Of a DNA stretch of 64,000 nt, positions 7,351 through 59,913 are shown piece after piece. A model generated the notes under the pieces. The model did not search any database. It saw only the letters and a program-made list of their open reading frames with translations, and had not been told where the DNA came from. The number at the start of each line of letters is the position of its first letter. Position 1 is the stretch's first letter. The stretch comes from Thermoplasmatota archaeon (GTDB taxonomy: Archaea; Thermoplasmatota; Thermoplasmata; UBA10834). The translations under genes and the position numbers were made by a program. The stretch is taken from positions 96,001 to 160,000 of the forward strand of contig JBFMHR010000004.1 in assembly GCA_040751795.1 (NCBI GenBank), read 5' to 3'.

Positions 7351-7393
7351 CCAGTGGTGATTTGGGGGCGTCGGGATAAATATGTTCCGCTGC

Positions 7394-11088: not shown

Positions 11089-11175
11089 GGCTCGCAGCCT
11101 CCAGCGGGGACGCGGGCGCGTTGAGCCCGCGTCTCGAACTTGAGGGGTTTGGGTTAAGGGGTTTGGGGATGGACC

Positions 11176-42702: not shown

Positions 42703-43259
42703 GGCTCGCCGGCGTCCTCTTCATCGCGGGCCTGATATTGTCCGCCGTCGGGGCCGCCCTCCTATTCACGATAGAGAACATCGAGCTAGTCGGGGACGAG
42801 GTCCTCGTCGTGCCGGAGGGCCAGGGCGGGTACGCGTACCTCGAGGTCGACATGGGCACCGGCGGCCCCATAGAGGGGACGTACGAGAGTCTCAACGGTA
42901 CCCCGGTCCAGGTCAGCGTCATGGACCAGGGTCAATTCGAGGACTTCCTGGACGGGCTCGATGGCGGGTCGCGGACCACAGTCATTGGCCTCTCAGGCGA
43001 CTTCAACGTCGAGCAGGTGGACATGGAGACATGCCACATCTTGGTGCAGCATGCCGCTGGGATGGAGGCCGGACAGTGGGTGAGGGTCGAATACACTGTC
43101 ACGAACACGGACTACCCCATGACGTTCGCATCCACCGCCGTCTTCATGGCAGGCGGTGTGATGGTCGCCTTCGCGTTCCACCCCAGGCTCAGAGGAAGGG
43201 CCAAGACACAGCGGCCTGCCGCCACCGGCCCCATCGACGTGATGTTCTTCGACGAGTAG
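42699..43259 (+). CDS. Hypothetical membrane protein (N- and C-terminal TM helices)
   Basis: TTG start overlapping the upstream stop; two hydrophobic segments flank a beta-rich domain. Confidence 0.6.
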   Translation: MRLAGVLFIAGLILSAVGAALLFTIENIELVGDEVLVVPEGQGGYAYLEVDMGTGGPIEGTYESLNGTPVQVSVMDQGQFEDFLDGLDGGSRTTVIGLSGDFNVEQVDMETCHILVQHAAGMEAGQWVRVEYTVTNTDYPMTFASTAVFMAGGVMVAFAFHPRLRGRAKTQRPAATGPIDVMFFDE

Positions 43260-43279
43260 GTTCCAGTCGCAGCGGGAGG

Positions 43280-43352
43280 AGCCACCGGGGAGGTTCGAAC
43301 TCCCGACCTGCTGATTACAAATCAGCTGCTCTTCCGGCTGAGCTACGGTGGC
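43280..43352 (-). tRNA. tRNA-Thr(TGT)
   Basis: Acceptor stem GCCACCG/CGGTGGC, anticodon arm GCTGA-TTTGTAA-TCAGC, T loop TTCGAAC. Confidence 0.95.
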
Positions 43353-43519
43353 GTGGGTGCGGCCTGCTGAGTAATCAGGCAGCCCACATATAGCTTTTCA
43401 CGGGGCTGCGTTGCCAGCGGGCCGCCTAGCCAGATGGTTACCGCCGGTCCCCGCAGGGCATAACCTTTAAATGGTGGCGCTGTATCCGCAGACATCGCGC
43501 TTGAAGCGGTGATGAGCCA

Positions 43520-44377
43520 ATGACCGAGAAGGAAGGTGCCAAGAAGCACCACGCCAAGGACGAGGAGAAGAAGGAGGCCGGGGCCAAGGTCGAGGCCGGC
43601 GACATAGTGATGGTGGAGTACGAGGCCTGGGTGGAGGACACCAAGGAGCTCTTCGACACCACGAGCGAGTCCGTCGCCAAGGACAACGGCATATTCAACG
43701 AGAAGATGGTCTACGGGCCGCAGCCGCTGATCGTGGGCAAGGGGAGGCTCTTCCCTGGCCTGGACGAGCACATGGCGAAGGCCGAGGTCGGGAAGGACTA
43801 CGAGGTCCTCATACCCCCGGAGAAGGGCGCCGGCGCCAGGGACCCGAAGCTGGTCGAGCTGCACCCGGTGAGGGAGTTCCTGAGGCAGGAGATCGAGCCC
43901 AGGGTCGGGCTCGAGGTCACGGTCAAGAACAGGCCGGGCTACATCACGGCCGTCACGGCGGGCCGCGTCAGGGTCGACTTCAACAACAAGCTCGCCGGCC
44001 GCACGCTGAGGTACAAGTACAAGGTCGTGGAGAAGCCGACGAAGCAGAAGGAGGTCGCGGAGCTCATACTCAAGATGGCCTACGGCACATCGGAGGGCTT
44101 CGACGTCGAGCACCACGGCAAGGAGTACAAGGTCAAGCTCCCCGACTCGTGCAAGTACGACCAGAGGTGGATCCTCGCCAAGTACGGCGTGGTCAGGGAC
44201 CTCAGGGAGGTCCTCGGGGCGGAGACCGTCTCCTTCATCGAGGAGTACGCCAAGCCCGAGAAGAAGGAGGAGCCCAAGGAGGAGCCGAAGGCGGAGAAGC
44301 CCGCCGAGGCCGCCCCCGAGGGGAAGGCCGAGGAGAAGGCCCCCGAGGAGCTGTCGGAAGAGGACAGGAAGGAGTGA
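43520..44377 (+). CDS. FKBP-type peptidyl-prolyl isomerase (archaeal long type)
   Basis: FDTT, G.G.L.PGLD, IPPEKG.G and VDFN..LAG motifs. Confidence 0.92.
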   Translation: MTEKEGAKKHHAKDEEKKEAGAKVEAGDIVMVEYEAWVEDTKELFDTTSESVAKDNGIFNEKMVYGPQPLIVGKGRLFPGLDEHMAKAEVGKDYEVLIPPEKGAGARDPKLVELHPVREFLRQEIEPRVGLEVTVKNRPGYITAVTAGRVRVDFNNKLAGRTLRYKYKVVEKPTKQKEVAELILKMAYGTSEGFDVEHHGKEYKVKLPDSCKYDQRWILAKYGVVRDLREVLGAETVSFIEEYAKPEKKEEPKEEPKAEKPAEAAPEGKAEEKAPEELSEEDRKE

Positions 44378-44436
44378 GCCCACTCCGGCACATATATATC
44401 CGCAGGCGCCCAGTGACGGGCGGCCTGCCCACACGC

Positions 44437-44511
44437 GGGCGCGTGGCCTAGTCAGGATATGGCACTTGCCTCCTAAGCAAGCGGTCAAGGGTTCGAATCC
44501 CTTCGCGCCCG
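44437..44511 (+). tRNA. tRNA-Arg(CCT), integration target
   Basis: Acceptor stem GGGCGCG/CGCGCCC, anticodon arm CTTGC-CTCCTAA-GCAAG, T arm AAGGG-TTCGAAT-CCCTT. Confidence 0.95.
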
Positions 44512-44514
44512 CTC

Positions 44515-45519
44515 TCACGCATAACCAGTATAATCGGCTCTCGGTTCAATCAGGGGGGAATTGAGCCTCGGAGCTGGTGCCGGCTTCTCGAAGGCTCGGA
44601 CGATTTCGAGCCTCGCGGAGTCGGCGTCTTTTCGGCAATAGTATCTCTCGGTGGTAAGGGTCGAGGAATGCCCAAGAGCGAGTGAGACACTCTCAAGCGA
44701 GACGCCCCGGTTCAGCAGGTTCTGTCCATAGGTCCTGCGGAGAGTCCTCAGCTCGAAGCGCACGCCTGACCGCTCTTCGACTTTCCTCTTCACCCTTCTC
44801 AAGTGGTTTGAGCTGTAGAACCCCGTAGGGTTCTCCAGCGGACAAACAAGCGGCTTTGCCTCAAGCAGCCCTCGCTCTGCAAGCATCTGTTCCCTTGCCT
44901 TGAGGTACCTTGCCACAGCGGACCTGAGAGGTTGGGGGATTGCCACGATTCGGTGGTCTCCGTATCTCGATTCTCCCTTGGGGTGCCGCACCTTCAGAGT
45001 CCACTGGACCGTATCCAGGTCCGAGAACTCCGCCTTCCTAAGCTCGCCAGGCCTGAGGCCCGTGTATGCATGGGTGGCTATCAGGAACCGTGCAATCTCC
45101 CCGGTCCAGCCACCTAGATTCGCTGCTGCCTTGAGAGCACTCTCAAGCTCTTCGACTGCAAGGCTCGGGCCTCTTGTTGAGACCCTCTTGGGGAAAAGGT
45201 GAGGCTTGCATGATTTCATCCTGTCCAGAACACCGTTCCCTGAGAACCTAAGCAGGGCCTGCAGGTTCTCGACCTCCTTGGATTGTGTTCCAAGAGACCA
45301 TTGACGTCTCCTGATGTCCAGCAGGATAGCCGAAACCTCTCGTTCTCCCCAGTTGCATGGATTGCGTTCCAGCAGAGGGTCCCCTCGGCAGAGCTTCTCA
45401 TATCGGCTAGCGAATGCTCTAAGCTTGCGTCCTCGCTCTGTAAGAGTCGCCTCAGCCAGGTACTGCTTGTTTGCGTCCATGTACTTCTCTATGGCCGTTC
45501 TCAGAGGGTATCGTCCCAT
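44515..45519 (-). CDS. Tyrosine integrase/recombinase
   Basis: TGLRPGEL (R), HPKG (K), RTLRR (RxxR in place of HxxR), LGHS (H) and ERYY (Y); stop lies 3 bp from the tRNA end. Confidence 0.93.
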   Translation of the reverse strand: MGRYPLRTAIEKYMDANKQYLAEATLTERGRKLRAFASRYEKLCRGDPLLERNPCNWGEREVSAILLDIRRRQWSLGTQSKEVENLQALLRFSGNGVLDRMKSCKPHLFPKRVSTRGPSLAVEELESALKAAANLGGWTGEIARFLIATHAYTGLRPGELRKAEFSDLDTVQWTLKVRHPKGESRYGDHRIVAIPQPLRSAVARYLKAREQMLAERGLLEAKPLVCPLENPTGFYSSNHLRRVKRKVEERSGVRFELRTLRRTYGQNLLNRGVSLESVSLALGHSSTLTTERYYCRKDADSARLEIVRAFEKPAPAPRLNSPLIEPRADYTGYA

Positions 45520-45651
45520 TGACCGACACCCCCTCTTGCGTCCACGCCTCTTTTTATCCACCGAGAGAGTACCATTGCGACATTGCCGAGTCGCATTGTC
45601 TCCCTCGGAAGGGACATTGACGGGACGGGACGTTAAGTTATCGGACATTTC

Positions 45652-46305
45652 CTAAGCCTTCGGTTCACCGACCAATTCACTAGGGGCCTCGACCCCCTCC
45701 TTATTCAATCGCGCCCTAGCCGTTACATACGAAACGCCAAACCTCTTCGCAATCTTCCTGTATCCAAGCCCCTGGGACCTTAGTTCACGCGCTAGAGCCA
45801 TATCGATGGCCTTCCTGGGCCTCCCCAATGACCTCCCCTCTGACTTCACCCTCTCAAGGCCTGCTTTGGTCCTTTCAACGATAAGGGCCCTCTCGAACTC
45901 CGCTATCTCGCCTAGAATGCCAACCAGAAGCCTACCCGTCGGAGTATTGGTCGAGAATGGCTGGTCCGAGCACTCGAACTTGATGCCCCGTTCCTCGAGC
46001 TCCCCGATAATCTGCTTGAGATTCAGGGATGAACGGGCAATCCTGTCGATCTTGGTGGTGAGGACCAGCCCGAACCTTCGAGCCCTAGCGTCATTCATCA
46101 TTCGTTTCAGGTTAGGACGATTAGGGTCTGCGCCCGAAGCCACGTCTTGATAGGTACTGTAAACGTCCCACCCCCTGGCGTGGGCGTACTCCCTTAACCG
46201 GATGAGCTGGTTCTCATTGGTCTGCCCGTCGGCCGTCGACACCCTTGCATAGAGAGCGACTTTCAGTCTCCTGTCATCCTTTGCCGTATTTCCTGATTCA
46301 TCCAT
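45652..46305 (-). CDS. Small serine recombinase (resolvase/invertase) with C-terminal HTH
   Basis: YARVST, DRIARS, AEFER..I.ERT..G, GRP and HTH. Confidence 0.93.
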   Translation of the reverse strand: MDESGNTAKDDRRLKVALYARVSTADGQTNENQLIRLREYAHARGWDVYSTYQDVASGADPNRPNLKRMMNDARARRFGLVLTTKIDRIARSSLNLKQIIGELEERGIKFECSDQPFSTNTPTGRLLVGILGEIAEFERALIVERTKAGLERVKSEGRSLGRPRKAIDMALARELRSQGLGYRKIAKRFGVSYVTARARLNKEGVEAPSELVGEPKA

Positions 46306-47239
46306 ACGAAATGTCTCCCCCGTCCTTCCTGTGCTCATAGGGATATTCCCCGTCAATTTGCCCTCCGAGAAGGCGTAGCAGGAGCTCCATCGTCCTGGCC
46401 TCGCTCTCTGCCAGCTTCTCGATAATCTCCTTGACATCGTCAACCGCTTTGCTGAGCTTATCAAGAACATCGAGAATCCTGACGTTGAAGTCGGCCTGAT
46501 TCACTAGACCTTTGATTCCATCTCTGATATTGTGGTCAGATTTTTGACACCTTATGTCCATCTCAGCAGGATAATGGGACGAACCGAACTGTGTTGGTCT
46601 ACCCCCGATTGTGAGCCTTTCCCCTTTGATGTCGACCGGCAAACAGAAGTCTGTCCTGGCCCTCCCCTCGCTCATCAACTTCAGTAGATACTCTAGGAAC
46701 TCCTTCCCGAAATGACGTTCAACCGCTGCCCTCCAGTATGGTCGATAGAAGAACTGCCCTCGCCTAGACCTGCCGTTGACAGTTAGCGTGAAGGACTGGG
46801 TCCTCAGGGTATACTGGTCATTCCCCCTCTCGCCCTTCGCTATCAGAGTATCCATCCATTCGGCGGTGAGGTCGACTAGCAGGTAGGTCCTGTGCTCGTC
46901 GTAATCAGTGAATTCATTACCGGGAAGGGAGGGGGTTACCATTATCCAGGGTTTGTCAGAACTCCCCTCGATGTAACTGATTGCCCATTCCCTGTTCTTG
47001 ATTCTATATAGTCTGTGCCCCTTCGAGTTTAGTCCCGGACTCGTCGCGATGCCCAATTTGACAAATCGTCTCAGGGCCTTCTCGATTGATGCCTTCTTAG
47101 TACCCCTCTTCTTGAACTCTGGACATTTGATGATGTCGTCGGCTGTGAACCCCCGAGATGATGAATACTGATTGCACAACGTTAGTAAGCGTTGGAGAAC
47201 GATAACCTGAGCCGACCGAAGCCTTCTCAGATGACACAC
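46298..47239 (-). CDS. Hypothetical protein with N-terminal wHTH-like region (candidate replication/regulatory protein)
   Basis: FTADDII...SIEKALRRFVKLG......RLYRI pattern; lies between the RHH and resolvase genes. Confidence 0.6.
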   Translation of the reverse strand: MCHLRRLRSAQVIVLQRLLTLCNQYSSSRGFTADDIIKCPEFKKRGTKKASIEKALRRFVKLGIATSPGLNSKGHRLYRIKNREWAISYIEGSSDKPWIMVTPSLPGNEFTDYDEHRTYLLVDLTAEWMDTLIAKGERGNDQYTLRTQSFTLTVNGRSRRGQFFYRPYWRAAVERHFGKEFLEYLLKLMSEGRARTDFCLPVDIKGERLTIGGRPTQFGSSHYPAEMDIRCQKSDHNIRDGIKGLVNQADFNVRILDVLDKLSKAVDDVKEIIEKLAESEARTMELLLRLLGGQIDGEYPYEHRKDGGDISYG

Positions 47240-47358
47240 CCTCTAGGGCGAGAGACATAGGGACTGTCCGTCGGTCCTGCACACTGGCTCAGTCAATGAG
47301 TGGGGGATGAGGGTAGGGAGTAACGTCCTCGCTCTCACCTTCATGACATTTGGGTCGA

Positions 47359-47565
47359 TCATTGACCGCCCCCCGACGCTTGGTCCTTGCGGTATAGCTC
47401 GTAGACCGCTTCTCGCACAACACTCGCTTTTGATGACCCTAGCGCCCTGCTCCTCTTGGTTACCCAGTCGGCCAGGTTCGGTGGCAACGTGAAGATAAAT
47501 CGTTCGCCGGGTCCATCATCAACCGCGCTCACATTGGGGTTTGCTCTTGTTTTTCTCTTGAACAT
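47359..47565 (-). CDS. Ribbon-helix-helix (CopG-like) protein
   Basis: RFIFTLP..LADWV...S...GSSKASVVREAV; GGAGAAG RBS. Confidence 0.75.
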   Translation of the reverse strand: MFKRKTRANPNVSAVDDGPGERFIFTLPPNLADWVTKRSRALGSSKASVVREAVYELYRKDQASGGGQ

Positions 47566-48055
47566 TGTTGTTCTTCTCCTTTGTTGTTGTTCTTCTCCGG
47601 GGTTCCATGTCCATCCTCCTCAGGACCCCGACCCTCGGGGTCCCGTCTTCCTGCTTCTCTCCGCTTGTTAGATGCGTGCTTTTGATATATAAGTGTTCCA
47701 GTATAATATAGGCCATATACTAAACGCCATCATCATATATCCGAAGTGCCATCACCCCCAACAGCCATAACTGACGAGCTTGAGTTGTACGCTGTTCTGG
47801 TGGGCTACCTGGTCTCGAAAACGGTCATTGAATCCGGCGTCGGGCGAGGGCGATAATTGACCTAATTCGACTATCTGGACGTTTCCCGGACCGTCGCGGA
47901 GATTGTCTCAAGTCGCATTTCTCGCGGGTCTAAATATATAGTATTAGTATGGGTAACGGTCCTTTTCTGAAAATGGATGCGAAGCGCGGCTCGAGAGGCA
48001 AAGAGACTAATCGGAGAATGGCCATCCGACTCTAGAGTGGGGTGGTTCAACGGCG

Positions 48056-48367
48056 GTGGAAGAAGACTTCGCGCTCTGTTGCACTGGGCTCATAATTATC
48101 GTGATTATCGCCGTGGTCTTGTGGGTCCTTGCGAAGGGCGCGGGAATCCTAGGGTCTCTCGGGCAGTGGAGGACAGGGTCCGCCCTTAAGCACATGTCTC
48201 GAGACGGTGTCACGATCCGGCAAGAGCCGCAATATCAACAGCCTCAGCAGGTGCACGGCTACCCGCCGCCCCAGGTGCAGGGTGCTGCCCGATTCTGCCC
48301 TTTCTGCGGGGCGCCAAGAATCGGTGGCGCAGCCTTCTGCCAGGGGTGCGGGAAGAGGATGCCATGA
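48056..48367 (+). CDS. Membrane protein with C-terminal double zinc ribbon
   Basis: TM helix, Q/P linker and FCPFCG......AFCQGCG. Confidence 0.75.
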   Translation: MEEDFALCCTGLIIIVIIAVVLWVLAKGAGILGSLGQWRTGSALKHMSRDGVTIRQEPQYQQPQQVHGYPPPQVQGAARFCPFCGAPRIGGAAFCQGCGKRMP

Positions 48368-48721
48368 CAATCGATACGGGGGGCTCAAGCTGGGCCTCCT
48401 GATAGGCTTCTCGCTCCTTGCTGGATGGGCGATAGCCTTGACCATATTCGGATGACCGTGCTCGAGCCAATGGCTTCGTCGTCGCGAAGGGTTCCCCTTC
48501 TTAGTATGTAATAGAATAACGGGACTGAACACCGAACACCGGACTTGATTGCGTGCATTGTGCGCTGTGCGCCTACATCAGAATAGTAGGAATAGTAGTA
48601 CTATGAGATTGACCAGGCGCATATCGCGCTTGAGAATTCTCGGTTTTGGGTGGCACCAAGACATATGTTATTTAATAGCGAAGTCTACCATCTATTCACC
48701 GCTGGTCTGGAGGAGACGCGA

Positions 48722-49906
48722 TTGAACGTGAATACCCACGACCCATTGAAGAAGACCCTCGGCTTGCTTGGCCCGTCATTCACTTGTGCCGTAATCACGG
48801 GACTATTCGTCTACGTAATGGTGACGCCAGACCTAATGGCGCTGATTATCTCAATCCTCGCAGGGTGGGTGTTCACGATGGTGATAATACTGTCCTGGTT
48901 TTTGGGTATCAGGGCAAAGACTAGCGGCCTGAAAAATGTCGCATACGGCCTGTTTGGCATACCAATGATAAAGCTCCCTGAGGACAGGATGGGGGAATCT
49001 GACAGAATCTATCGTGCGGGCCTGGAGACCCTGGAGGCGGATCGGGAGATTAAGGAAATCGATTTGCATCATCTACAATCCAGACTCGAAATACTCAACG
49101 CGGTAATCAAAGCCGGGCCGTATGCAATCATGTCATCGTTTGTTGCCGCAGGTTGGGCAGTCCTATCGGGTGAATCGACCGCACTGAATTCACTGCTTCT
49201 GCTCGCGGCATTCATTGTCATGCTGGTTGTGGGATGCAATCGGAAAGCCAAAGAGGCAGAAACAACACTTGGCACCCTGAAGCTCAACAAGAACAAGACA
49301 GAGGAACGATACAGAGTCAGAGAGGAGGAAGTCAAGGCAGACGCCCAGAAGGCGAAGGACGCGGCATCGGACGTCTTTGACCATTACTTCAGAGTCACGT
49401 TCAGCAGAGAGTTCTTCGACCAGCAAAGGAAGACGGCGCACAGCATGCTACCAGAGTCGACAAGTCTTAGGTCTACCAACTTGGCGTTTCGTCACAAAGA
49501 GTGCTTTAGACTAGCTACTGAGCTGAAGAAAAAGACAATCGAGTTCATTGACTGCGCCGAGGCCTGGAGGAGCCTGGTCGGCAGTATGGTCAAGTCAATC
49601 CAACCCGGGGCTCCCCACTTGGACCCCGGAGACCAGGAACGTAGGGTAGACGAGTTTTCTAGGTCTCTCATCTTCTGCATTTCCGAAAACATCGTCAAGC
49701 CGACCCAGATAGGACCCGTGTTGGACCGGAAGAAAATCGACGGTTCGTTCATCAAAGGTATTACTACCGTTCTTGAGCCACCTATCAGGTCGCTTCTTGA
49801 AGACCCTGGCCTGAAAGCGAAAGCGAGAGAGTTAGAAGGCTTAATGACCACAGGGGCAGAGCTAAAACGGAGCCTCTTGAGAGAGGTGTCAGTGCTTTAC
49901 GGATGA
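48722..49906 (+). CDS. Hypothetical multi-TM protein with coiled-coil C-terminus
   Basis: Long ORF in a low-GC region; about 4 hydrophobic helices; GGAGGAG before TTG 48722. Confidence 0.65.
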   Translation: MNVNTHDPLKKTLGLLGPSFTCAVITGLFVYVMVTPDLMALIISILAGWVFTMVIILSWFLGIRAKTSGLKNVAYGLFGIPMIKLPEDRMGESDRIYRAGLETLEADREIKEIDLHHLQSRLEILNAVIKAGPYAIMSSFVAAGWAVLSGESTALNSLLLLAAFIVMLVVGCNRKAKEAETTLGTLKLNKNKTEERYRVREEEVKADAQKAKDAASDVFDHYFRVTFSREFFDQQRKTAHSMLPESTSLRSTNLAFRHKECFRLATELKKKTIEFIDCAEAWRSLVGSMVKSIQPGAPHLDPGDQERRVDEFSRSLIFCISENIVKPTQIGPVLDRKKIDGSFIKGITTVLEPPIRSLLEDPGLKAKARELEGLMTTGAELKRSLLREVSVLYG

Positions 49907-50076
49907 GCGTTGTGGTGGCAACTCAGGATCGCAAGTATTCCCGAGAAGCGCCTATAAGCCGCCGACAACGCTCAGATTGAGAAAAGTAAAGGGTTTAGGG
50001 GGTACTTTCGGGCCCCTCCAAGAACGCGATAAAACAGCAATTATGTACCTTTCAAGGTCGAGCCAGTCATTTTAGC

Positions 50077-50096
50077 GGGTTCAAATCCGGTTGAGC
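50077..50096 (+). repeat. Degenerate tRNA-Arg T-arm fragment
   Basis: GGGTTCAAATCCGGTTGAGC is 19/20 identical to 52063-52082. Confidence 0.65.
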
Positions 50097-50176
50097 CTAC
50101 TGACAGAGTGAAGACCATAGGAGAGAAGAGAAGCCCTTAAGCCACCGACAGCGATTCGGATGCGGAGGGAATCGGC

Positions 50177-50551
50177 GTGAATTGTACTCAATGTGGGTCG
50201 GAGAATCCGTCGAACGCGAGATTCTGCATTGCCTGCGGTTCGTCCTTGGCGAGAACGGCGTTTGGGATGCAGGCAGTTGCGGGACTGAGTGAAACACAAC
50301 GAATCGAAATCGTATCTGACAACGTAACCAGCAAGACCGAGAAACTTGCCTGTAGGGTACTGGGAGGCACCGCATGGATAGTCGTTTCTGCTGGGACATT
50401 CATAATCGCCATTGCATGGCTCAGTCTCATGGACATGAACTACTATGACGACGAACAGTTGATGCTCAAGATGATTGGCTACGGAGTGGTTGCATACGGA
50501 ATCTCAGCCATCCTCTTTGGGTTCAGAGCCTTCATCAGGACTCCGAGATGA
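50177..50551 (+). CDS. Zinc-ribbon + 2TM protein
   Basis: CTQCG..N...ARFCIACG followed by two TM helices. Confidence 0.8.
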   Translation: MNCTQCGSENPSNARFCIACGSSLARTAFGMQAVAGLSETQRIEIVSDNVTSKTEKLACRVLGGTAWIVVSAGTFIIAIAWLSLMDMNYYDDEQLMLKMIGYGVVAYGISAILFGFRAFIRTPR

Positions 50552-50735
50552 CATACAGGCGCATCGAAAGCGTCTAGGACGCGTTTCCTTCGATGGCCGT
50601 AACGCAACCCGTCGTCAGAGGTATCTTACCCCTGCCGAGACGTGTTAGAGGCGAATCCTCGGCTATTCCTGAATAGACCTGCATCTGAAGGCGCGAAAAG
50701 ACCATATGACGGCATGAGTATTCGCGGGGGAGGAC

Positions 50736-51287
50736 ATGGCGATCACCTGCTCCAACTGCGGCGCGAAAGGTCTGCTCGAGGGCGACCGATTCTGTAAATG
50801 GTGCGGCAACGTACTCCACATACTAGGGCCGGACCCGGAGGAAACAGCCACTCGGTGGCACATAGAGACCAATAGAACGACACACACGCGATTGAACTTC
50901 TGGTTGATAACCGAGGGCCTCTTGCTCACTGCATATGCAGCCGCGTCAATCGAACCGTCAGGCGATGCTACCGCTTATGTTCGCATCGTGATGTCTGCAA
51001 CGGGAGTGTTCTTCACGGTGGCTTGGTACCTTCTTTATGTTCGCTCGTGGCGGTACACTACCTGGTATTTCGAAAGGGCAAGGGCCATGAGTTGGTGGAG
51101 ATATGGGGGTTGGAAACATGGCACACCTGGTAATCCGCGCGACATACCTCCTTGGTCCGTGTATCCTCCCGAGGAACAGTGGTCTGTCTGGTCAGGAGGC
51201 GGTCTTGGCGCGGGCATAGGCGCAGGTTTGTTTCTAATTGCCTTCTTGTCAATATGGATTACTTTGATGGCGGTGTCGTTCTCCTGA
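50736..51287 (+). CDS. Zinc-ribbon + 3TM protein
   Basis: CSNCG......RFCKWCG, then RLNFWLITEGLL and TM helices; GGAGG RBS. Confidence 0.8.
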   Translation: MAITCSNCGAKGLLEGDRFCKWCGNVLHILGPDPEETATRWHIETNRTTHTRLNFWLITEGLLLTAYAAASIEPSGDATAYVRIVMSATGVFFTVAWYLLYVRSWRYTTWYFERARAMSWWRYGGWKHGTPGNPRDIPPWSVYPPEEQWSVWSGGGLGAGIGAGLFLIAFLSIWITLMAVSFS

Positions 51288-51376
51288 GTCAGAGAGAGCG
51301 GAGGGAAGAGCGGAGAGATTCAACCTCGTCGCCAATCGTCCTGAACCTTGGCTATTCGCGTGCAGAAAAGGGAAAG

Positions 51377-51483
51377 GGGTTTGGGTCCGTGCTCAATTTC
51401 CGTTGATTGACGACTAAGCCCGACATACTGGCTTGCTAGCAGAGCGAATCCCTTCGCGCCCGCTCTCAACCATATCCAGCATG
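51377..51483 (+). repeat. att junction 1 (right arm + 24-bp tRNA core + mirrored left arm)
   Basis: TGATTGA 51404, ATACTGG 51425, core 51445-51468 identical to 44494-44517, then CCAGCATG. Confidence 0.9.
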
Positions 51484-51530
51484 ATCAGTTGTTTCTCCAC
51501 CCCATGACTGGTTCGGTGCTCGGAGAAGGA
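51466..51530 (-). pseudogene. Relic 3' end of a second integrase
   Basis: Encodes ...TDHAGYG* versus ...ADYTGYA* in the intact integrase, with the stop codon at the same position relative to the core. Confidence 0.65.
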
Positions 51531-52033
51531 GAAGTAAGGGTGGAGGGCCGCAGAAAGGACAATATAGGCTCACGGATGTCTTCGGTTCATATGAGTGCGA
51601 CAGACAGGGAGGGCCCCACCACGAGCAATGAGCATCATTCGCGCCTCCTTCTATCCAAGGGATGATGGGTTGCGATACTTGCTCTTGCATCCGCACCATT
51701 GGCATTCATCTACATAGTGACCGAGGGGAGCGTAGGGCGATGGGTGGCATGGCTAGCCATTCCGCCTCTGCTTGTCGCCCTCTTATACTTCTATTATGTC
51801 TCCTACAGGGCTGTGTTCGGGGGCTCCAGACCTCGCTAATGGAACATGATTGGTTGGAGACTCAAGAGAGTGGATGTCTGGTCCCCTGATAACTCCTCCA
51901 TTTCCTGTCTTAGCTTGACCCGAGCCCTGTAAATCCTCATGTAGCAGGTCCAGCATAGCTTCTTTGTCTTCACAGGAACTCTCCCACACTGAATGCACGC
52001 ATGTCCAGGGCGGTACTTCCTGGGGTGCTTCAC

Positions 52034-52074
52034 TGGCACTTGCCTCCTGGGCAAGTGGTCAAGGGTTCGAATCC
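52034..52074 (+). pseudogene. tRNA-Arg fragment (anticodon arm to T loop)
   Basis: TGGCACTTGCCTCCTGGGCAAGTGGTCAAGGGTTCGAATCC matches 44460-44500 with 3 mismatches. Confidence 0.85.
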
Positions 52075-52129
52075 GGTTGAGCACACCCCACTGAGACAAG
52101 CCCAAAATAGGGAACGGGAAAAGGGTCCG

Positions 52130-52609
52130 TTATGGAGAGAGCGACTCGTAGACTTTGTCGACCGCCTTCTCTATCTCGTCAAAGCAGACGTCATCGTTGC
52201 AGGCATTCAGTTTGCCCTTCAGGTTCTTGATCTTTATGCTCAAATCTGTCTTCGTCGATGAATAGGACAACAGTGAGTCCTTGGCGTAGCCGATGATGCC
52301 ACCGGTTCCCGAGACGCCGGCAACCACAGTGGTGATTGCGCCCAAGGCATCAGACCATGTGATGGCACCTATTGCGGTCAGGGACGTGATGACCGAAGAA
52401 GCAATGACAATGGCCATCTGGGTCCTTATGTGCCGGAGTTTGAGCTCCACAGCTTCCTCTAAGCCACTAATTCTGATTCCGATGTCCACCTTCCGGTTTA
52501 CTATGCTCCTTCCTATACTCTTCCTTATGTTCTTGGCCGAGCGTGCACTTGACGATACTGCATGCGCCCAAATCCAGTAGGCTATCTCTTTCCTAATCAA
52601 TCCATTCAC
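52130..52609 (-). CDS. Hypothetical 2TM protein (SLATT-like topology)
   Basis: Two adjacent hydrophobic helices followed by an amphipathic helix; start uncertain. Confidence 0.6.
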   Translation of the reverse strand: MNGLIRKEIAYWIWAHAVSSSARSAKNIRKSIGRSIVNRKVDIGIRISGLEEAVELKLRHIRTQMAIVIASSVITSLTAIGAITWSDALGAITTVVAGVSGTGGIIGYAKDSLLSYSSTKTDLSIKIKNLKGKLNACNDDVCFDEIEKAVDKVYESLSP

Positions 52610-52696
52610 CCTCTCTTCTCCTCGAACCACCGAGGCAGTACTGTGAATCAACCTGTGCAATATTAGTCGATTTCCTCAAGAATGGGTGAAGGAAGA

Positions 52697-52785
52697 GGGT
52701 TTGAGGACGAGCGAATTTTCCCTCTGATTGAACTGGCATCGCGACTTACTGGCTCTGTGAAGGTGCGAATCCCCTTCGGTTCAAT
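52697..52785 (+). repeat. att junction 2 (right arm + partial core)
   Basis: GGGTTT 52697, TGATTGA 52725, TTACTGG 52746, CGAATCCCCTTCG 52766, then GTTCAAT as in the left arm. Confidence 0.8.
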
Positions 52786-52842
52786 TCATAAGAGACACCC
52801 TTAAGCCGACGAGAGCGATTCGGGCAGGGAGGAGACGGTGAG

Positions 52843-53085
52843 ATGGTCATGCACTGTGCTAATTGTGGGTTCCCACTTGAGCCGAATGCGAGGTTCTGTC
52901 CAAGGTGTAGCTCGGTCTCTCTGGCAATCAGCCAAAGGGAACCTAGTCTAGAAAGAATCGCACTCGCAATTGAGCGGAATGCGACTGCGACCGAGAACAT
53001 ATACAACCTTATGCTCGCCGCGGCTGCCGTGACCGTTATCGTCGGCATACTTCTCGGAATTGTAGTAACTGGAGGTTGGCCCTAA
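52843..53085 (+). CDS. Zinc-ribbon + 1TM protein
   Basis: CANCG......RFCPRC and a C-terminal TM helix; GGAGG RBS. Confidence 0.75.
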   Translation: MVMHCANCGFPLEPNARFCPRCSSVSLAISQREPSLERIALAIERNATATENIYNLMLAAAAVTVIVGILLGIVVTGGWP

Positions 53086-53174
53086 ACGTAGGATGAGCGT
53101 CCAGGTCCGGGCTCGACTTCCTGCTGACGCAAGCCCTTAAGCCCTCTAAGGCGATCCAGACACGAGGAGATGGC

Positions 53175-54023
53175 ATGGGTGGAACCCTTTCCCGTGTGTG
53201 TCTAGTGTTAGTAGTGTGCGCAGCGACACTTCTGATGTCCCTGGGTGCGTGTTGTGCGGCTCCAACCTCGACGACCGACAGTCGAACAGTGACTTTCTCA
53301 ATAGATCGACCAGATCTATGGCTTGACGCGAGGCTTCCTGTTGTCGCTACGTGGACTGACAGCTTCACGGCCTCAAAGGATGATGTCCTCGCACTCTCGT
53401 ACACGCTAGAATCTCAGGCAGCGAGCGTCGAGCTGACTCTTCCTCTCAGCGACTACCTTTGGTGGCTAGGCGTCGATGATGTTACTATCGATGTTCCTCT
53501 GGGAAACACTCCGTTGGTCGCGGAGTCAATCTCTCTAACCTCACTTGCAGGAATACCCTCTTGGGCAGCCTCACTGGACCTCAGGTTGAGTGGGTCCGTG
53601 CGTATGCACGACCTCTGCTGTGTCTCGGGTTCGGCGCTCATTCAAACGCCCGCTTCGGCGGTGACGTGGAGTACTTGGTCGACAGAGACGGCTCAGGTTA
53701 TTGCTCCGGAAAGCCCTGGTGCGTCTGTTCGCGCAACCCTCGCCTATGCGCTGGGGATAGGACTCACCCTGTCAGTCCTTGGAGCTGATGTCTACGATAT
53801 CATTCCTTCCTCTACGGTCTTGAGTGTGGTTGGCGCTCCGAGCCTTGAGACAGAGATTGATGTGCCGACACCAGCATCCGCAATGTCAATAGTCATGATT
53901 GGAGTTGCCATAGCTGCTGTCGTCGCGGTTGCTGCAATTCTGCTCATGGTCTTGCGACGCAAGAGAGGCAGTTCTGGGGCAGCCGAGACTGAATCGCCAC
54001 CTGAGGAACCGGAGATGCCATAA
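53175..54023 (+). CDS. Secreted, C-terminally membrane-anchored surface protein
   Basis: Signal peptide, S/T-rich beta domain, TM helix and RRKR tail. Confidence 0.75.
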   Translation: MGGTLSRVCLVLVVCAATLLMSLGACCAAPTSTTDSRTVTFSIDRPDLWLDARLPVVATWTDSFTASKDDVLALSYTLESQAASVELTLPLSDYLWWLGVDDVTIDVPLGNTPLVAESISLTSLAGIPSWAASLDLRLSGSVRMHDLCCVSGSALIQTPASAVTWSTWSTETAQVIAPESPGASVRATLAYALGIGLTLSVLGADVYDIIPSSTVLSVVGAPSLETEIDVPTPASAMSIVMIGVAIAAVVAVAAILLMVLRRKRGSSGAAETESPPEEPEMP

Positions 54024-54379
54024 GACGCGTTCTTCTCGGTGGCCGTAACGCGAAGTGCATTCGGAGGCATCGAGCCCTTGCCGAGAGGAGACCCCCCTCG
54101 AATCCCAGGGATAGATCGGACGACATGGCCCTTTCTTCTCTACTGCGCCCTCGCATGAAATCTTTGAGGGGCATCCTTTGGCGATTGCGAGGAGAATCTC
54201 CTGAATCTAAGGTCTTGTCATGCTGGGCTCCATAAGGCCTTGTAGCGCAAAGGAAGGCCAGATAGGCAAAGGGTTCGAAGGAAGATTGGACGGCTAGGTC
54301 AATTCAGCGGTCATGACTTAGAATCTTCGGAGCAAAGATTTATCGCCTCTAATGCATTAAGGATTTTCGGAGGAAGACT

Positions 54380-54976
54380 GTGGGTGTTAAGAATTGTCCT
54401 TACTGCGGAACTGCGAACCTTCTCAATGCAGTGCAATGCGTGAGATGTGGAACTATGCTCGCGCTACCGACTCCTCCAAGACCTCCTTCTCATGCTGGTG
54501 CGATAGCAGCTGGTGTTGTTGCCTTCATAGTGGTAATAGTGGTTGTCCTTGCCTATACTAGCATCCTTTCAGTTCCTTCTGGAGACGGTGGTGTCGTCGA
54601 CCCAGTAGGCACAGTAACGACAAACATCCGTACTGATGAGAAGAATTGGTTTGACTTTGAATCAGGAAGCCAGAACGTCCCAAACTGTGATTTCTATGTA
54701 GATAGTACGCTTAATTTCTATACTTCCGTTGCTATAGGAGATTCGATGTTTATCTCCGATGTCGGCCCCGTGAGCGGTCTCGGTCAGGTTACGATTATTC
54801 CAACTTCTGGCTGGACTGAAGCATGCTCAATTATCTTGGGACACGGATATGTCGTTCAGACTACGGATAATCACTATTACGGGATGTATGCCGTTGACTG
54901 GATGACGGACGCAGTTTTTGGCGGAGTGATTGGCCTTCAATTCAAATGGTATTTCATGGGAGATGTTGCAGTTTAG
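54380..54976 (+). CDS. Zinc-ribbon + TM + extracellular beta domain protein
   Basis: CPYCG......QCVRCG, a TM helix, then a WFDF...P.SGW...GHGYVV.T.D..Y domain. Confidence 0.78.
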   Translation: MGVKNCPYCGTANLLNAVQCVRCGTMLALPTPPRPPSHAGAIAAGVVAFIVVIVVVLAYTSILSVPSGDGGVVDPVGTVTTNIRTDEKNWFDFESGSQNVPNCDFYVDSTLNFYTSVAIGDSMFISDVGPVSGLGQVTIIPTSGWTEACSIILGHGYVVQTTDNHYYGMYAVDWMTDAVFGGVIGLQFKWYFMGDVAV

Positions 54977-55007
54977 ACGACACCGGTTAGAGAAGAAGCC
55001 TTGAAAG

Positions 55008-55091
55008 GGGTTTAGCTCCGGCCTCAATCCGGTCTGATTGAATGGTTCTCCCGGCATACTGGCTATTCAAAGGTTCGAATCCCTTCGCGCC
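55008..55091 (+). repeat. att junction 3 (outermost attR)
   Basis: GGGTTT 55008, TGATTGA 55035, ATACTGG 55056, and 55067-55091 matching tRNA 44485-44509 at 24/25. Confidence 0.88.
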
Positions 55092-55250
55092 AGCCATTTC
55101 CATCCTTGAATGGCGCGAGGGCGTTTGAGATCCCTTCTGCCTCGGGCCACAGGCCCGAGGGTCGGGCGTTCATCCTGCTGGTTGGCTCACCGGGAGCAGT
55201 GGGGACTGCCGTGATAAGGTATATCCCCCCTGACTGGAGTGCGCTTCTGC

Positions 55251-55709
55251 ATGGCGACGCTGAGATGCCCTAGGTGCGGCAACATCGATAGCAGTTTCCA
55301 GTCACGGTTCTGCAACCTCTGCGGGGCGGCTCTTGTGGATGCCCAGGCGAAGGAGGAGATGATTGACGCGAAGCATTGGGAACTGCCGTTCATCCTCTCG
55401 ATTCACAGGGGGGAGTTGATCGTGAGGCCCGGCTCGGAGGACAGCTTCATCGAGTCCAGACGCAAGATCCTCGGCGCGAGAGCGGTGGTTGTGCATTCGA
55501 GAGCGACCTGGATCCGCAACAACGTCGTCATGGCCCTCTACTTCTTGATCGTCGCCGTCCTGCTCACTGCGGTCATGGCTTCCGCCGGGCTGCCGTGGAT
55601 CGGGGTATCAATCGGACTGTTGATGTTTGCGGTGTACTCACCCTACCTAGTGATGTTCATCTGGTCGCTGCAGCCGATAAACGACAGGAACAGATACTAC
55701 GGGCCTTGA
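55251..55709 (+). CDS. Zinc-ribbon + 2TM protein
   Basis: CPRCG......RFCNLCG and two C-terminal TM helices. Confidence 0.75.
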   Translation: MATLRCPRCGNIDSSFQSRFCNLCGAALVDAQAKEEMIDAKHWELPFILSIHRGELIVRPGSEDSFIESRRKILGARAVVVHSRATWIRNNVVMALYFLIVAVLLTAVMASAGLPWIGVSIGLLMFAVYSPYLVMFIWSLQPINDRNRYYGP

Positions 55710-55984
55710 GTCACGGCGGACATGGCAACCTGATTGGGCGCCCGGAGAGCCGTGAGGGGGAACGGAGTCCGGCTCCCGGCCCGGAAACCCCCCTCATCGA
55801 GTCACATCCCAGGTCTGCCGGCCTCTCAAGGCCTCGGCCCCCTTCGCCTTCGCTCCCCCCTCCGCCAGTGGTTGCTGACTAATATAACGACAAGTTTTTA
55901 TATAATCCCTACTCAAATATACCCTGGACGGGGGAGAGGCACCGGGACGCCCCGGGCCGACCCCCTTTGGATGAGGTGTAAGAG

Positions 55985-56449
55985 ATGGGAACACCACAGC
56001 AACCCAGTTCTAGGATGTGCGTCCAGTGCGGGAAGCCTATCGCCCAGGACGCGAACGTGTGCCCGTACTGCGGCAAGGACTACCGTGTCCAGGCAGCGCC
56101 GGCGGCCAAGAAGAAGACCGTGATGCCCCTGGTGGGCGGCATCCTGATCGTGGTCGGCGGCGTCCTCGCCCTGCTGGCAGGCATAGGCCTGGTGGCCAGC
56201 GTCGGGGCCTTCGACTCCCTGATGATCGTCGACGTCGAGGGCGTGGACATGCTCGAGGACCTCCTGACGGCCTGCGGCATACTGTTCATAATATTCGGCC
56301 TGATAGGACTCCTCGGAGGAGTGTTCGCCATAATGAGGAAGCACTTCGGCCTGGCGATACTCGGCGGCATATTCGCCCTCTTCGGGTGGTTCCTCCCGGC
56401 GCTGATCGGGCTCATCCTGGTCGGGATGTCGAAGGAAGAGTTCGAGTGA
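55985..56449 (+). CDS. Zinc-ribbon + multi-TM protein
   Basis: CVQCG......VCPYCG followed by 3-4 TM helices; host-like codon usage. Confidence 0.8.
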   Translation: MGTPQQPSSRMCVQCGKPIAQDANVCPYCGKDYRVQAAPAAKKKTVMPLVGGILIVVGGVLALLAGIGLVASVGAFDSLMIVDVEGVDMLEDLLTACGILFIIFGLIGLLGGVFAIMRKHFGLAILGGIFALFGWFLPALIGLILVGMSKEEFE

Positions 56450-56515
56450 CCGGGTTCCCCGGCCGACGGACCTGAAACCCCTTCCAAGCCTTTGGTTTCC
56501 ACTCATATGCGCAGG

Positions 56516-57046
56516 TCACCCCCTGCGCGCCCTCCACCGCCTCTCGAACTCCGCCTCCCACCACGAGGCGTACCTCCTGACCCCCCTGCGCCGCATCCGG
56601 AGCGCCTCCACGGCGACCTCGTGGGCCAGTGCGGCCGCCTCCTCAGACCACGAGCCCCTCAGACCCCTGGGCACGACCAGGTAGGTCGGCGACTCGTCGA
56701 TGTACCTCGGGGGGACCCTCGCGAGGGCGTGGACGTCCGCGGCCCTCTCGCCGCCGGGGATGCCCTTCGAGTTGAACTGCGCGAGGTGCATCAGCTCGTG
56801 GGCGACGGTCCAGTGGGTGGGGTACCTCCAGCCGCCCCGTCCCCTCCTCACCTCGAGCATGAGCTTGGCGAACCCGTCGTCCGTCTGGAAGACCGCGCCG
56901 TCGTAAGCCCTGGTGATGCCGACGGCCAGCTCTCTCCTCATCTCGGGGAAGTAGCGGCCGAGGGCCCGGAGCCTCCTCTCCACCTCCCCCCGCACCTCGG
57001 GGGGCAGCTTCTTGGCCGTCCTGGTCCAGGAGATCGTAAGCGGCAT
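56516..57046 (-). CDS. Hypothetical protein with HExxH (zincin-like)
   Basis: VAHELMH followed by E.AAD. Confidence 0.6.
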   Translation of the reverse strand: MPLTISWTRTAKKLPPEVRGEVERRLRALGRYFPEMRRELAVGITRAYDGAVFQTDDGFAKLMLEVRRGRGGWRYPTHWTVAHELMHLAQFNSKGIPGGERAADVHALARVPPRYIDESPTYLVVPRGLRGSWSEEAAALAHEVAVEALRMRRRGVRRYASWWEAEFERRWRARRG

Positions 57047-57089
57047 ATCGCTGCTCTATGGCGTCCGTCCCTCTTATCGGATGCGCCCC

Positions 57090-57836
57090 TCACTCCTCGA
57101 CGAGGACCTTCCCCTCTATGGAGACGACATACCTCCTGACGGGGATGTCCTTCCCTGACCTCCTCAGGGCCTCCATGGTGAGCCTCATGAGCCCCTGGCA
57201 GCAGGGGACCTCCATCATCACGACCGTGAGGCTCCTCGGGGAGGCGTCCCTGAAGAGCGCTGTGAGCTTGTCCAGGTAGGCCTGCTGCTCGTCCAGCTTC
57301 GGGCACCCTATGATGACGGGCCTCCCCCTGAGGAACCTCCCGTGGAAGTCCCTGTAGGCGAAGGGGACGCAGTCCGCAGCGAGGAGCACGTCCGCCCCCT
57401 TGAAGAACGGCATCGAGGGATGCACGAGCCTCCACTGCACCGGCCAGTTGGTCAGCTCCGGCGGCAGCGTCCCCGCGTCCGCCTGGGGCTGCGCCGGGGC
57501 CCTGGGCATCCCCTGCCCCGCCCTGAGTATCATGGGGTTGGACGAAGGGCAGCCGCACGGCTCCGTGGCCGCGTGCTCCGCGACGTGCTCCTCCCCGCCG
57601 TGGAGGTGCCTCTTGACGGCCTCCTCGTCGAACTCGGGTGCGTCCCTCTCGACGATCCTGAGGGCGCCCTGCGGGCACTCCCCTATGCACGCCCCGAGCC
57701 CGTCGCAGAACACGTCGCTCACGACCTTGGCCTTGCCGTCGACGATCCTGAGGGCCCCCTCGGCGCACGCAAGGGCGCACTGGCCACAGCCGTCGCACTT
57801 CTCCTCGTCTATCTCGATGATCTTCCTGAGGACCAT
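57090..57836 (-). CDS. 4Fe-4S ferredoxin-domain protein
   Basis: CDGCGQC...C, CDGLGAC...CP, GCP, L.NWPVQ, ADC, GCPKLD and MEVPCC motifs. Confidence 0.9.
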   Translation of the reverse strand: MVLRKIIEIDEEKCDGCGQCALACAEGALRIVDGKAKVVSDVFCDGLGACIGECPQGALRIVERDAPEFDEEAVKRHLHGGEEHVAEHAATEPCGCPSSNPMILRAGQGMPRAPAQPQADAGTLPPELTNWPVQWRLVHPSMPFFKGADVLLAADCVPFAYRDFHGRFLRGRPVIIGCPKLDEQQAYLDKLTALFRDASPRSLTVVMMEVPCCQGLMRLTMEALRRSGKDIPVRRYVVSIEGKVLVEE

Positions 57837-57911
57837 GCCTTCACCCGCCTGGTCACCATGACGGCCCCGGGGGTATCAAAAGGCATCGCCGGACACCGCC
57901 GGTGCCCCAGG

Positions 57912-58793: not shown

Positions 58794-58842
58794 CTTATCC
58801 GTCCAGGCATGCGACTGGGGGGTTAAAAGGAATCCCCCCTCC

Positions 58843-59286
58843 TCACTTGGCGAAGTTCTGGGCGGTCTCCTCCCTGTCCATGGACTCCCCCAGGACCTGG
58901 CCGAGGATGACCCCTATGAACCCGCCCAGGACTATGACGAGGAGGGGTATGACGGTCATGTTGACGAAGAACATGAAGTAGAGGCCCGGGAAGATGATGG
59001 AGAAGTCGTATATCGTGAACGGGGCCGAGTACGCGGCGACGGCTATCGCGTAGCCGATGGCCACGTACAGCAGGACGGTGACTATGGCGAGGTCGGTCCT
59101 CCTCGTCAGGTACCCGGACGGCATCCCGAACATGATCGCCAGGAGGAAGAGCACGAGCATGTTCTTGTCCAGGGAGGGCGTGGTCAGGTTGGGGAAGATG
59201 AAGTCGAAGAAGACGAATGCGACCCCCGGGGCGCTCATGAGCGCCATCACCAGCATCCTCCTCCAGTCCTCGCCCCTGACCCTCAC
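58843..59286 (-). CDS. Hypothetical 4TM membrane protein
   Basis: Four hydrophobic helices; GTG start overlaps the upstream stop. Confidence 0.7.
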   Translation of the reverse strand: MRVRGEDWRRMLVMALMSAPGVAFVFFDFIFPNLTTPSLDKNMLVLFLLAIMFGMPSGYLTRRTDLAIVTVLLYVAIGYAIAVAAYSAPFTIYDFSIIFPGLYFMFFVNMTVIPLLVIVLGGFIGVILGQVLGESMDREETAQNFAK

Positions 59287-59885: not shown

Positions 59886-59913
59886 TCCGACGACCCCCCT
59901 CGGCCGGGCGGCG

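Follow-up and report, generated by a model that had tools for sequence, protein, structure and literature searches.

A single integrase gene followed by a row of small genes, parted by fragments of tRNA, raises the question of whether the row is exchanged piece by piece, as in an integron, or records repeated insertion at one tRNA gene. The locus lies in a 64,000-nt stretch of DNA (the window) within contig C34 of a metagenome-assembled genome (MAG) of a Thermoplasmatota archaeon (2.05 Mb in 53 contigs, 92.8% complete), where tRNA-Arg(CCT) is followed by a tyrosine integrase and several tRNA-derived repeats. An earlier note on this DNA had described 44437-55091 as a tandem array of islands built by tRNA-targeting tyrosine integrases, which holds, and had gone on to propose that its distal units are minimal cassettes moved in trans, a functional analogue of an integron, which our results do not support. 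We consider it probable that at least four related integrative elements have accumulated in tandem at the tRNA-Arg(CCT) 3' end, filling 44513 to about 55858, and that the array later decayed in the manner of cis-mobilizable elements (CIMEs). The region would then be an ordinary kind of genomic island.

Limits of the island

The tRNA-Arg(CCT) gene (44437-44512, plus strand) is intact according to ARAGORN and Rfam (RF00005, 66.2 bits), and is the integration target and the B side of attL. An Rfam scan of 43000-57000 (E <= 0.1) returned nothing beyond two tRNAs. GC content drops from about 0.65 to 0.52-0.54 over 44.5-55.1 kb and then returns via 0.61 to 0.66; with units numbered from the tRNA, it is 0.52-0.54 in units 1-3, 0.61 in unit 4 and 0.65-0.66 in the flanks. 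The closest relative, G003, has an empty site. There, window segments 43276-44518 and 55826-60101 align to adjoining sequence, both flanks are collinear with ours, and the homologue of gene 55985 begins 131 nt past the tRNA. The tRNA 3' end and flank of G003 align to the window from 55826 onward, and at residue level 55826-55858 matches that 3' end and its native downstream flank at 24/32, as a degraded copy. Because this stretch is a decayed tRNA 3' end copy, the array ends near 55858 and includes a fourth unit with gene 55239-55709; the earlier note, which closed the array at 55091, had missed this sixth site. The low-GC island thus runs from 44513, where tRNA-Arg(CCT) ends, to about 55858. 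Its right edge is marked by the first core gene (55985-56449, plus strand), which encodes a zinc-ribbon membrane protein and lies downstream of the tRNA in 11 relatives, at distances of 131-7065 nt as against 11,472 nt here.

tRNA-Arg(CCT) was found in 41/41 genomes searched and is 95-100% identical in same-family relatives; the locus could be retrieved from 18 relatives. Relatives reached via the integrase carry the record title 'Thermoplasmata archaeon' MAGs, and FKBP26-type domains in the left-flank gene are consistent with an archaeal host. Comparison of the locus across relatives had been proposed earlier as a check on cassette gain and loss. The locus is not fixed, being empty in G003 and holding unrelated inserts in others, and none of the 14 island proteins besides the integrase recurs there in the 18 relatives. 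Together with the evidence below, this outcome lies on the side that the earlier note had set against its own proposal, decayed tandem islands only, save that it had paired that outcome with a locus fixed among relatives.

We also examined four public sequencing runs (X1-X4), among which the source sample's own reads were not identified. Some contigs from X1 have the empty-site form, in which 44516/44518 runs straight into 55880. Others match units 2-3 at about 100% over 51846-53929 and read through both 52034-85 and 52766-78; in this run 44868-50004 has next to no depth. These contigs bear on whether the array is an assembly artefact, that is, a MAG contig chimeric across short att repeats shared by different strains. 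The genome is in 53 contigs, related elements occur side by side in this type of sediment, and no independent contig spans the 51445 junction. However, the shared repeats are 24-42 nt long, below usual assembly k-mers, the X1 contigs cover 51846-52147 and 52602-52847 in window order with 0 substitutions (one 1-nt gap), and both flanks are collinear with G003. We therefore regard an artefact as extremely improbable.

Attachment sites and the history of the array

The repeat sites exceed chance in shuffle controls. The 12-mer GGGTTCGAATCC (at most one mismatch) occurs 5 times in the window, where 0.46 are expected and 0/100 shuffles reach 5, and a 16-mer core (at most three mismatches) occurs 6 times, 3 of them exact, against 1.35 expected. 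The clearest pair bounds unit 1, a 6,956-nt element: 44494-44517 is identical to 51445-51468 (24/24), and the repeat finder extends the match to 42 nt at 88%. The first of these (repeat families D7/D8) is the attL core, and its 5 nt past the tRNA (TCTCA) hold the integrase stop codon. Since the empty site of G003 reads TCCCA where the window has TCTCA, the present tRNA 3' end is element-derived. Further right, 55067-55091 matches 24/25 by eye (55076-55094, 18/19 by the repeat finder). Together with 51445 and 55826, this site completes the set of true tRNA-Arg 3'-end copies downstream of the gene. The earlier note had counted five fragments of the tRNA's 3' half, and all lie where it placed them and above chance, but the 50077 fragment is Val-type, the 52766 fragment Ala-type, and 52034-52085 an Arg/Val chimera.

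The integrase of unit 1 (44515-45648, minus strand, 377 aa; PF00589, 5.5e-14; phrog_1 integrase) is intact, as noted earlier, and its gene ends 2 nt past the tRNA on the opposite strand. Its catalytic domain is complete (PF00589 profile positions 4-167 of 172), and full-length relatives match residues 5-377 and 2-368. It may belong to the class labelled 'pNOB8-type', of non-partitioning integrases. Within the 3' end of the gene (44523-44552, plus strand) lie two P' arm boxes, AACCAGT (44523-29) and TCAATCA (44546-52), which are inverted copies of the boxes in the P arm at the other end of the unit (51372-51468, plus strand; TGATTGA at 51404, ACTGGCT at 51427, then the attR core 51445-51468).

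The same arm precedes three of the other sites. The 70-90 nt left of 51445, 52766 and 55076 align with one another and with arms from G022 and G024; the arm at 55826 aligns too, degraded and GC-enriched. The boxes keep a fixed spacing, TGATTGA-N16-ACTGGCT-N12-GAATCC, with 3 exact occurrences in the window against 0.00 expected. With at most one mismatch, this signature occurs in 19/401 genomes of the class and in 15/45 of the family (reversed control, 0), and across class genomes the T-arms of several different tRNAs follow it. The P' boxes, A[A/G]CCAGT and TCAATCA, are inverted and stand at +28 and +51 from GAATCC, inside the last 20 integrase codons. Among 28 Arg-core contexts examined they occur in 6, exactly the junctions with an integrase tail of at least about 20 codons, and none was found right of 51446, 52767 or 55077. 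From this layout, attP is predicted to be an imperfect palindrome that spans about 100 bp, with the T-stem/acceptor part of the core at its centre and its mirrored half in the integrase coding end; the arm boxes may bind integrase or a helper protein. All island units appear, by their arms, to belong to one element family that is widespread in Thermoplasmata MAGs.

These features suggest the following history. An incoming circle would carry an attP made of the conserved arm TGATTGA-N16-ACTGGCT-N12, a tRNA-derived core and the mirrored arm in its own integrase 3' end. It would recombine with the tRNA, its own copy replacing the tRNA 3' end, and each insertion would shift the earlier units and the original 3' end rightward. 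The newest unit should then be the tRNA-adjacent one (44513-51468), the sole one that is intact, with integrase, resolvase, 313-aa and ribbon-helix-helix (RHH) proteins. Older units would have lost integrase and core module by deletion, and what is left of them would come from their right ends: a right arm, a core, and genes for small membrane proteins that each have a promoter.

Integrase remnants beside a tRNA or core agree with this decay. Only window unit 1 has a full-length integrase; G020 retains a few codons, window unit 2 about 7, G007 59, G024 114, G022 138 and L145 145, and none remain in window units 3 and 4 or in G017, which retains just TCTC of an integrase-type junction. Relic lengths thus grade without a break from 0 to about 145 codons, a pattern that fits decay by deletion. 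In the species-representative collection, 5/5 integrase relatives are C-terminal pieces only. The window's own relic (51466-51490, minus strand; repeat family D7, 42 nt at 88%) forms the left end of unit 2 and has decayed P' boxes. A relic integrase tail had been noted here and is indeed present, but it amounts to about 22 nt, or some 7 codons, and BLASTP of the 79-aa ORF against the integrase found nothing. After 51468 neither Pfam nor PHROGs detected a recombinase or replication family, in line with the earlier note. CIMEs lack recombination and transfer genes and keep att sites on both sides; after 51468, right-hand arms and cores are kept, left-hand P' boxes are missing, and two of the cores are of another tRNA type.

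Such steps have precedents. That archaeal tyrosine-recombinase elements use one integration site again and again, in tandem, and later lose the integrase is described in the accessible parts of PMC8371274 and PMC6563490, decay to att-flanked elements followed by accretion in those of PMC5704250, and tRNA fragments arise as integration by-products (PMC9897764). The archaeal arrays, as far as the same portions of PMC8371274 and PMC6563490 describe them, resemble ours in integration at the 3' part of a tRNA with an element-supplied 3' end, in an unsplit integrase gene next to attL, and in re-use of the site with integrase lost afterwards. Ours differs in its predicted attP, an imperfect palindrome with its right half in the integrase coding end, and in having cores of three tRNA identities in one array.

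Unit 1, with its perfect 24-nt repeats, is probably active, judging from its sequence. A variant of it occurs in X2 as a 5285-nt contig that maps on window 44489-45658 and 50574-51468, both ends alike: the integrase is 93% identical, the right end (50574-51468) 98.9%, and about 3.2 kb in the middle is different, which points to module exchange inside the element family. Hardly any of units 2-3 is present in X2, and X3 and X4 raw reads gave only partial tRNA-Thr-like matches.

Next to the integrase lies a serine recombinase/resolvase with a helix-turn-helix (HTH) (45652-46470, minus strand; PF00239, 3.1e-40; phrog_125 DNA invertase). As listed, its ORF shares 173 nt with the next one, and the Pfam match begins only at residue 71; because of the overlap, the true start is probably an internal codon. 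The next ORF (46298-47239, minus strand) encodes the 313-aa protein, which also stands next to integrase and resolvase in another element (G006:C1); the counterpart, at L137, keeps the gene order and is 26% identical across residues 14-312. It had no match in Pfam, PHROGs or NCBIfam. A small protein follows (47359-47565, minus strand) that is possibly RHH (PF01402, E 0.0084, below cutoff). The cargo of unit 1 (48056-49906, plus strand) consists of a 103-aa zinc-ribbon protein and a 418-aa membrane/coiled-coil protein; neither the latter nor the 313-aa protein had a usable match in Pfam, PHROGs, NCBIfam or the ESM Atlas (best atlas score 0.79; TM-scores <=0.30). Elsewhere in the same genome (L002, contig C1:390582-391740), a second integrase of this family directly follows tRNA-Leu(CAG), arranged as at tRNA-Arg; it is 36% identical with internal stops (1 TGA, 2 TAG), a decayed insertion.

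Distal units, their cargo and the integron comparison

Within the right part of unit 1, a site with a second arm type (ATGTACCTTT..GAGCCAGTC; 50030-50099, plus strand, repeat family D9) ends in the core 50077-50099. Beyond it, 50110-51287 (plus strand) holds an extended promoter-like repeat, D1 (50110-50176), and zinc-ribbon membrane genes 50177-50551 and 50736-51287. Unit 2 contains a 5'-truncated multi-zinc-ribbon gene (51836-52033, minus strand), the tRNA-like fragment 52034-52085 (plus strand), a 176-aa membrane protein (52130-52660, minus strand) and a P arm (52690-52783, plus strand; boxes at 52725 and 52748, exact) that ends in the core 52765-52783. The cargo block of unit 3 (52790-54976, plus strand) comprises D1 with an 80-aa zinc-ribbon gene (52843-53085), D1 with a gene for a 282-aa secreted or anchored protein, p282 (53175-54023), and a gene for a 198-aa zinc-ribbon protein, z198 (54380-54976), followed by a P arm (55003-55094, plus strand; boxes at 55035 and 55058, exact) and the Arg-type core 55067-55094 (24/25). 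Unit 4, presumably the oldest (GC 61%), encodes a 156-aa zinc-ribbon membrane protein (55239-55709, plus strand) and closes with a decayed P arm and the displaced ancestral tRNA-Arg 3' end with its native flank (55760-55858, plus strand), the true distal boundary according to the G003 and arm alignments.

The genes between the sites had been called unrelated, yet six island genes encode short zinc-ribbon membrane proteins, and three genes stand behind the shared repeat. Each of 50177, 52843 and 53175 is preceded by its own D1 copy (window 50126-50168, 52790-52832 and 53126-53168). The D1 core, CCTTAAGCC-NN-CGA-NN-GCGATT, has 81 matches in 26/46 family genomes, against 2 for the control, typically about 40 nt 5' of the start codons of small zinc-ribbon genes and often clustered in islands (for example, 5 copies in 7.4 kb in G005). 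The full module reads ..GAGAGAAGC-CCTTAAGCC-AT-CGA-GA-GCGATTCGG..GAGGGAATGG-ATG, and in its extended form, GAGAAAAGGCCATAGGGG-CGGAGAGAAGC-CCTTAAGCC, it resembles an archaeal promoter that is preceded by an upstream element. The motif CCATAGG, considered as a special left arm of integrase-less units, was rejected: it is part of the extended promoter and precedes about a dozen of 48 distinct D1 copies, most of which are internal.

Beyond the zinc ribbons the cargo is orphan-like. The family holds a single real homologue of p282 (G004:C2, 31%, interrupted by a TAG in frame), other matches covering the C-terminal anchor only, and matches of z198 are confined to the zinc ribbon. The host gene 55985-56449 and its homologues in relatives likewise encode a short zinc-ribbon membrane protein, behind an AT-rich, TATA-like promoter, so the island cargo resembles a host gene class. 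In another genus, the two-unit array at L053 (G024:C63), which spans 7.1 kb between tRNA-Arg and the right-flank gene and has a 114-codon integrase relic, carries cellular-type genes: an ABC transporter ATPase and permease, a B12-binding protein and a response-regulator/histidine-kinase hybrid.

Could these units be minimal, non-autonomous cassettes, inserted, excised and shuffled singly in trans by one integrase? Several small units (0.76-2.3 kb) do lie between tRNA-derived cores with conserved arms, integrase-less junctions at which a promoter directly follows the core occur at three tRNA types, and the locus differs among relatives. Like an integron, the locus has one tyrosine recombinase at one end, beside a series of small units, most of them with a single gene, that are parted by recombination-site remnants. 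In other respects it differs from the system of IntI, attI, attC and the common promoter Pc. Under the integron-integrase model TIGR02249 (cutoff 265 bits), the integrase reaches 22.8 bits, with no stretch passing alone, and its best NCBIfam match is archaeal XerA (53.7 bits, cutoff 220). The internal sites are direct repeats of tRNA 3' ends with duplex arms; in 81-nt windows round four of them, single-stranded DNA folding gave z = -1.79, -1.72, -0.13 and +0.38, with no significant attC-like hairpin. Cargo genes point away from the integrase end instead of lying downstream of it, and genes 50177, 52843 and 53175, each with its own putative promoter, do not fit a common-promoter cassette scheme.

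The layout of the sites argues further against single-cassette movement. Distal units have right arm boxes only, without the mirrored P' boxes present at 6/6 integrase-bearing left junctions, and because their left sides lack these boxes the distal sites look attR-type only; cargo would then be unable to exit or shuffle alone. Two of the proposed boundaries, 50077 and 52766, carry cores of other tRNAs (Val- and Ala-type), which depart from the Arg core within the predicted crossover region. None of the cargo genes is also present at the 18 related loci, as described above. The four public runs, at low coverage, yielded no cassette circle, no single-unit joint and no joint at 51445, 52766 or 55076, sites of the circle junctions proposed earlier as a check, and one X1 contig bridges 52766 unchanged in window order. 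Taken together, these results make the cassette proposal very unlikely.

Public contigs suggest instead that unit 1 and units 2-3 occur apart, as whole blocks rather than as cassettes: X1 has the latter and X2 a variant of the former.

Foreign cores and mobility

Several observations sit uneasily with serial insertion at tRNA-Arg alone. Val- or Ala-type cores occur at 50077, 52073 and 52765, and serial insertion does not predict them, because the tRNA would have been broken for a time. By eye, 50077-50099 matches the 3' end of the genome's own tRNA-Val(CAC) at 19/22, and it and 52073-52085 match its own tRNA-Val 3' ends at 19-20/22; the two sites also form a 20-nt repeat family (50077-50096 and 52063-82, 95%). 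The core 52765-52783 is nearer to tRNA-Ala(TGC) (15/16) than to tRNA-Arg (9/15), again by eye, and 50077-50088 and 52766-78 have only the T-loop in common with tRNA-Arg. Core decay is also out of positional order, 55076 being better kept than 52766, as would be expected only if 52766 was never Arg-type. Units 1b (50097) and 3 (52784) begin with a promoter right after the core, with no integrase vestige, and such junctions occur in 3/46 genomes (control 0) at three tRNA types, for example after tRNA-Arg in G017 and tRNA-Gly in G022, so that deletion would have to stop near the core each time. Finally, the absence of unit 1 from X1 relies on 3-7x contigs, which can show presence and not absence, and contig joints with short sides (25-30 nt) at 90% likeness may come from sister species.

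The chimeric fragment combines both identities: 52034-52074 matches tRNA-Arg from position 24 to the T-loop (38/41), and 52073-52085 supplies the Val-type 3' end. An X1 contig covers the whole of 52034-52085 without substitution. It lies inside an opposite-strand ORF and so resembles the unsplit 5' end of an SSV-type ('suicidal') integrase gene, with attP within it. We rejected this reading: the overlapping ORF is the 5'-truncated zinc-ribbon gene (51836-52033), whose homologues in G018 and G138 run on upstream without a tRNA-like part where the window turns tRNA-like. Also unlike SSV-type systems, the resident integrase is not partitioned, its stop codon merely abutting the core.

The foreign cores could reflect exchange among loci, composite elements with a second attP or loose integrase specificity. 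A possible though rather unlikely version of the first is that the mosaic of foreign cores and chimeric fragment arose mainly by recombination between related elements at different tRNA genes, whether homologous, through the promoters (about 55 nt) or arms, or integrase-driven, instead of by serial insertion here. Val- and Ala-type cores within an Arg array would be accounted for directly. Homologous recombination as a route by which tandem archaeal elements exchange modules is discussed in the accessible part of PMC8371274, and integrase-linked chromosomal inversions are reported in that of PMC5495485. G018 has an arm and Arg-type core 1.8 kb upstream of the right-flank homologue, with its tRNA-Arg(CCT) some 800 kb off, and in G022:C55 the unit behind a tRNA-Gly opens with a promoter and closes with an Ala-type core. 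Set against this, three Arg-type sites, arms in register and a native 3' end displaced to the far right fit serial insertion directly, and, since both flanks are collinear with the closest relative, no large rearrangement breakpoint exists here now.

Sites of this kind at other loci were seen as follows. At L087 in the complete genome G018 (C1:335000-354999), the arm and Arg-type core stand at 16492 and the right-flank gene homologue at 18301-18789; this position suggests a chromosomal rearrangement with its breakpoint in an array of integrated elements. At L142 (G022:C55:40000-59999, 6427-8000), a 1.5-kb low-GC unit without an integrase follows tRNA-Gly(GCC), in the order promoter, 107-aa zinc-ribbon gene, 303-aa gene, second arm type (as at the 50077 site) and a core identical to the tRNA-Ala(TGC) 3' end. 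At L090 (G020:C1:1400000-1419999, about 10530-11950), tRNA-Val(GAC) and an integrase relic are followed, at 1.3 kb, by an arm, a complete Arg-type core and the start of an integrase tail, an att junction foreign to the tRNA-Val array in which it lies.

If distal cargo moves at all, accretion as described above predicts that it would at most travel with unit 1 as a composite, through recombination of attL (44494) with site 55076. Apart from unit 1's own attR, the only good partner for attL appears to be 55035-55094, and its use would release units 1-3 in one piece; it is possible that distal cargo is mobilised jointly with unit 1. The fuller proposal, an extension of accretion and decay rather than a replacement for it, is that the unit 1 integrase does recombine attL (44494-44552) with 55035-55094, so that units 1-3 leave as a 10.58-kb circle and integrate elsewhere. 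The integrase is intact, and the 55076 site keeps both P-arm boxes exactly and 24/25 core bases. The Arg-type junction 1.3 kb from tRNA-Val(GAC) in G020 is what would be expected if composites move whole, and cis-mobilisation is documented for att-flanked decayed elements in streptococci and Streptomyces, in the accessible part of PMC5704250. On the other hand, no contig of the public runs shows either composite junction, 55094/44513 or 44512/55095, X1 and X2 show unit 1 and units 2-3 separately, and a C-to-A change in the 55076 core (CGCGCCAGC) may fall in or near the crossover region. We consider actual movement of this kind fairly unlikely.

In Streptococcus thermophilus ICESt1/3 and Streptomyces PAISt, as treated in the available sections of PMC5704250, recombination genes are likewise lost and att sites kept, the elements adjoin a functional relative in tandem where a tRNA or other gene ends, and composite excision through outer sites is possible. 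Those elements are bacterial and conjugative, with excision and transfer demonstrated; our island has no transfer genes and one usable-looking distal site (55076), read from sequence alone.

Accretion and decay at tRNA-Arg(CCT) remains our preferred explanation, and it leaves room for a bolder one, which we hold to be quite unlikely: that the locus is a working capture platform of an undescribed Thermoplasmata family. Its integrase would move its own 7-kb element as well as composites with integrase-less, promoter-equipped units, and the promoter-first units with Arg-, Gly- and Val-type cores would be non-autonomous satellites spreading between tRNA genes. In a search of the literature on Thermoplasmata integrases and tRNA-integrated mobile elements, judged by title or abstract, we found no description of this element family or of its uncultured sediment Thermoplasmata host.

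For work on archaeal mobile elements, the signature TGATTGA-N16-ACTGGCT-N12-T-loop is useful in locating the right ends of this family, and an attP mirrored into the integrase coding end would offer concrete sites for mutation. A useful by-product is the strongly conserved promoter-like module that fronts dozens of small zinc-ribbon membrane proteins. For the organisms themselves, which form an archaeal group that has been little studied, the island is a clean, well-bounded case of a familiar process, in which elements integrate repeatedly at one tRNA and then decay. If its passenger units are mobile, it would be an archaeal counterpart of bacterial accretion-mobilisation; if they are not, it is an ordinary finding.

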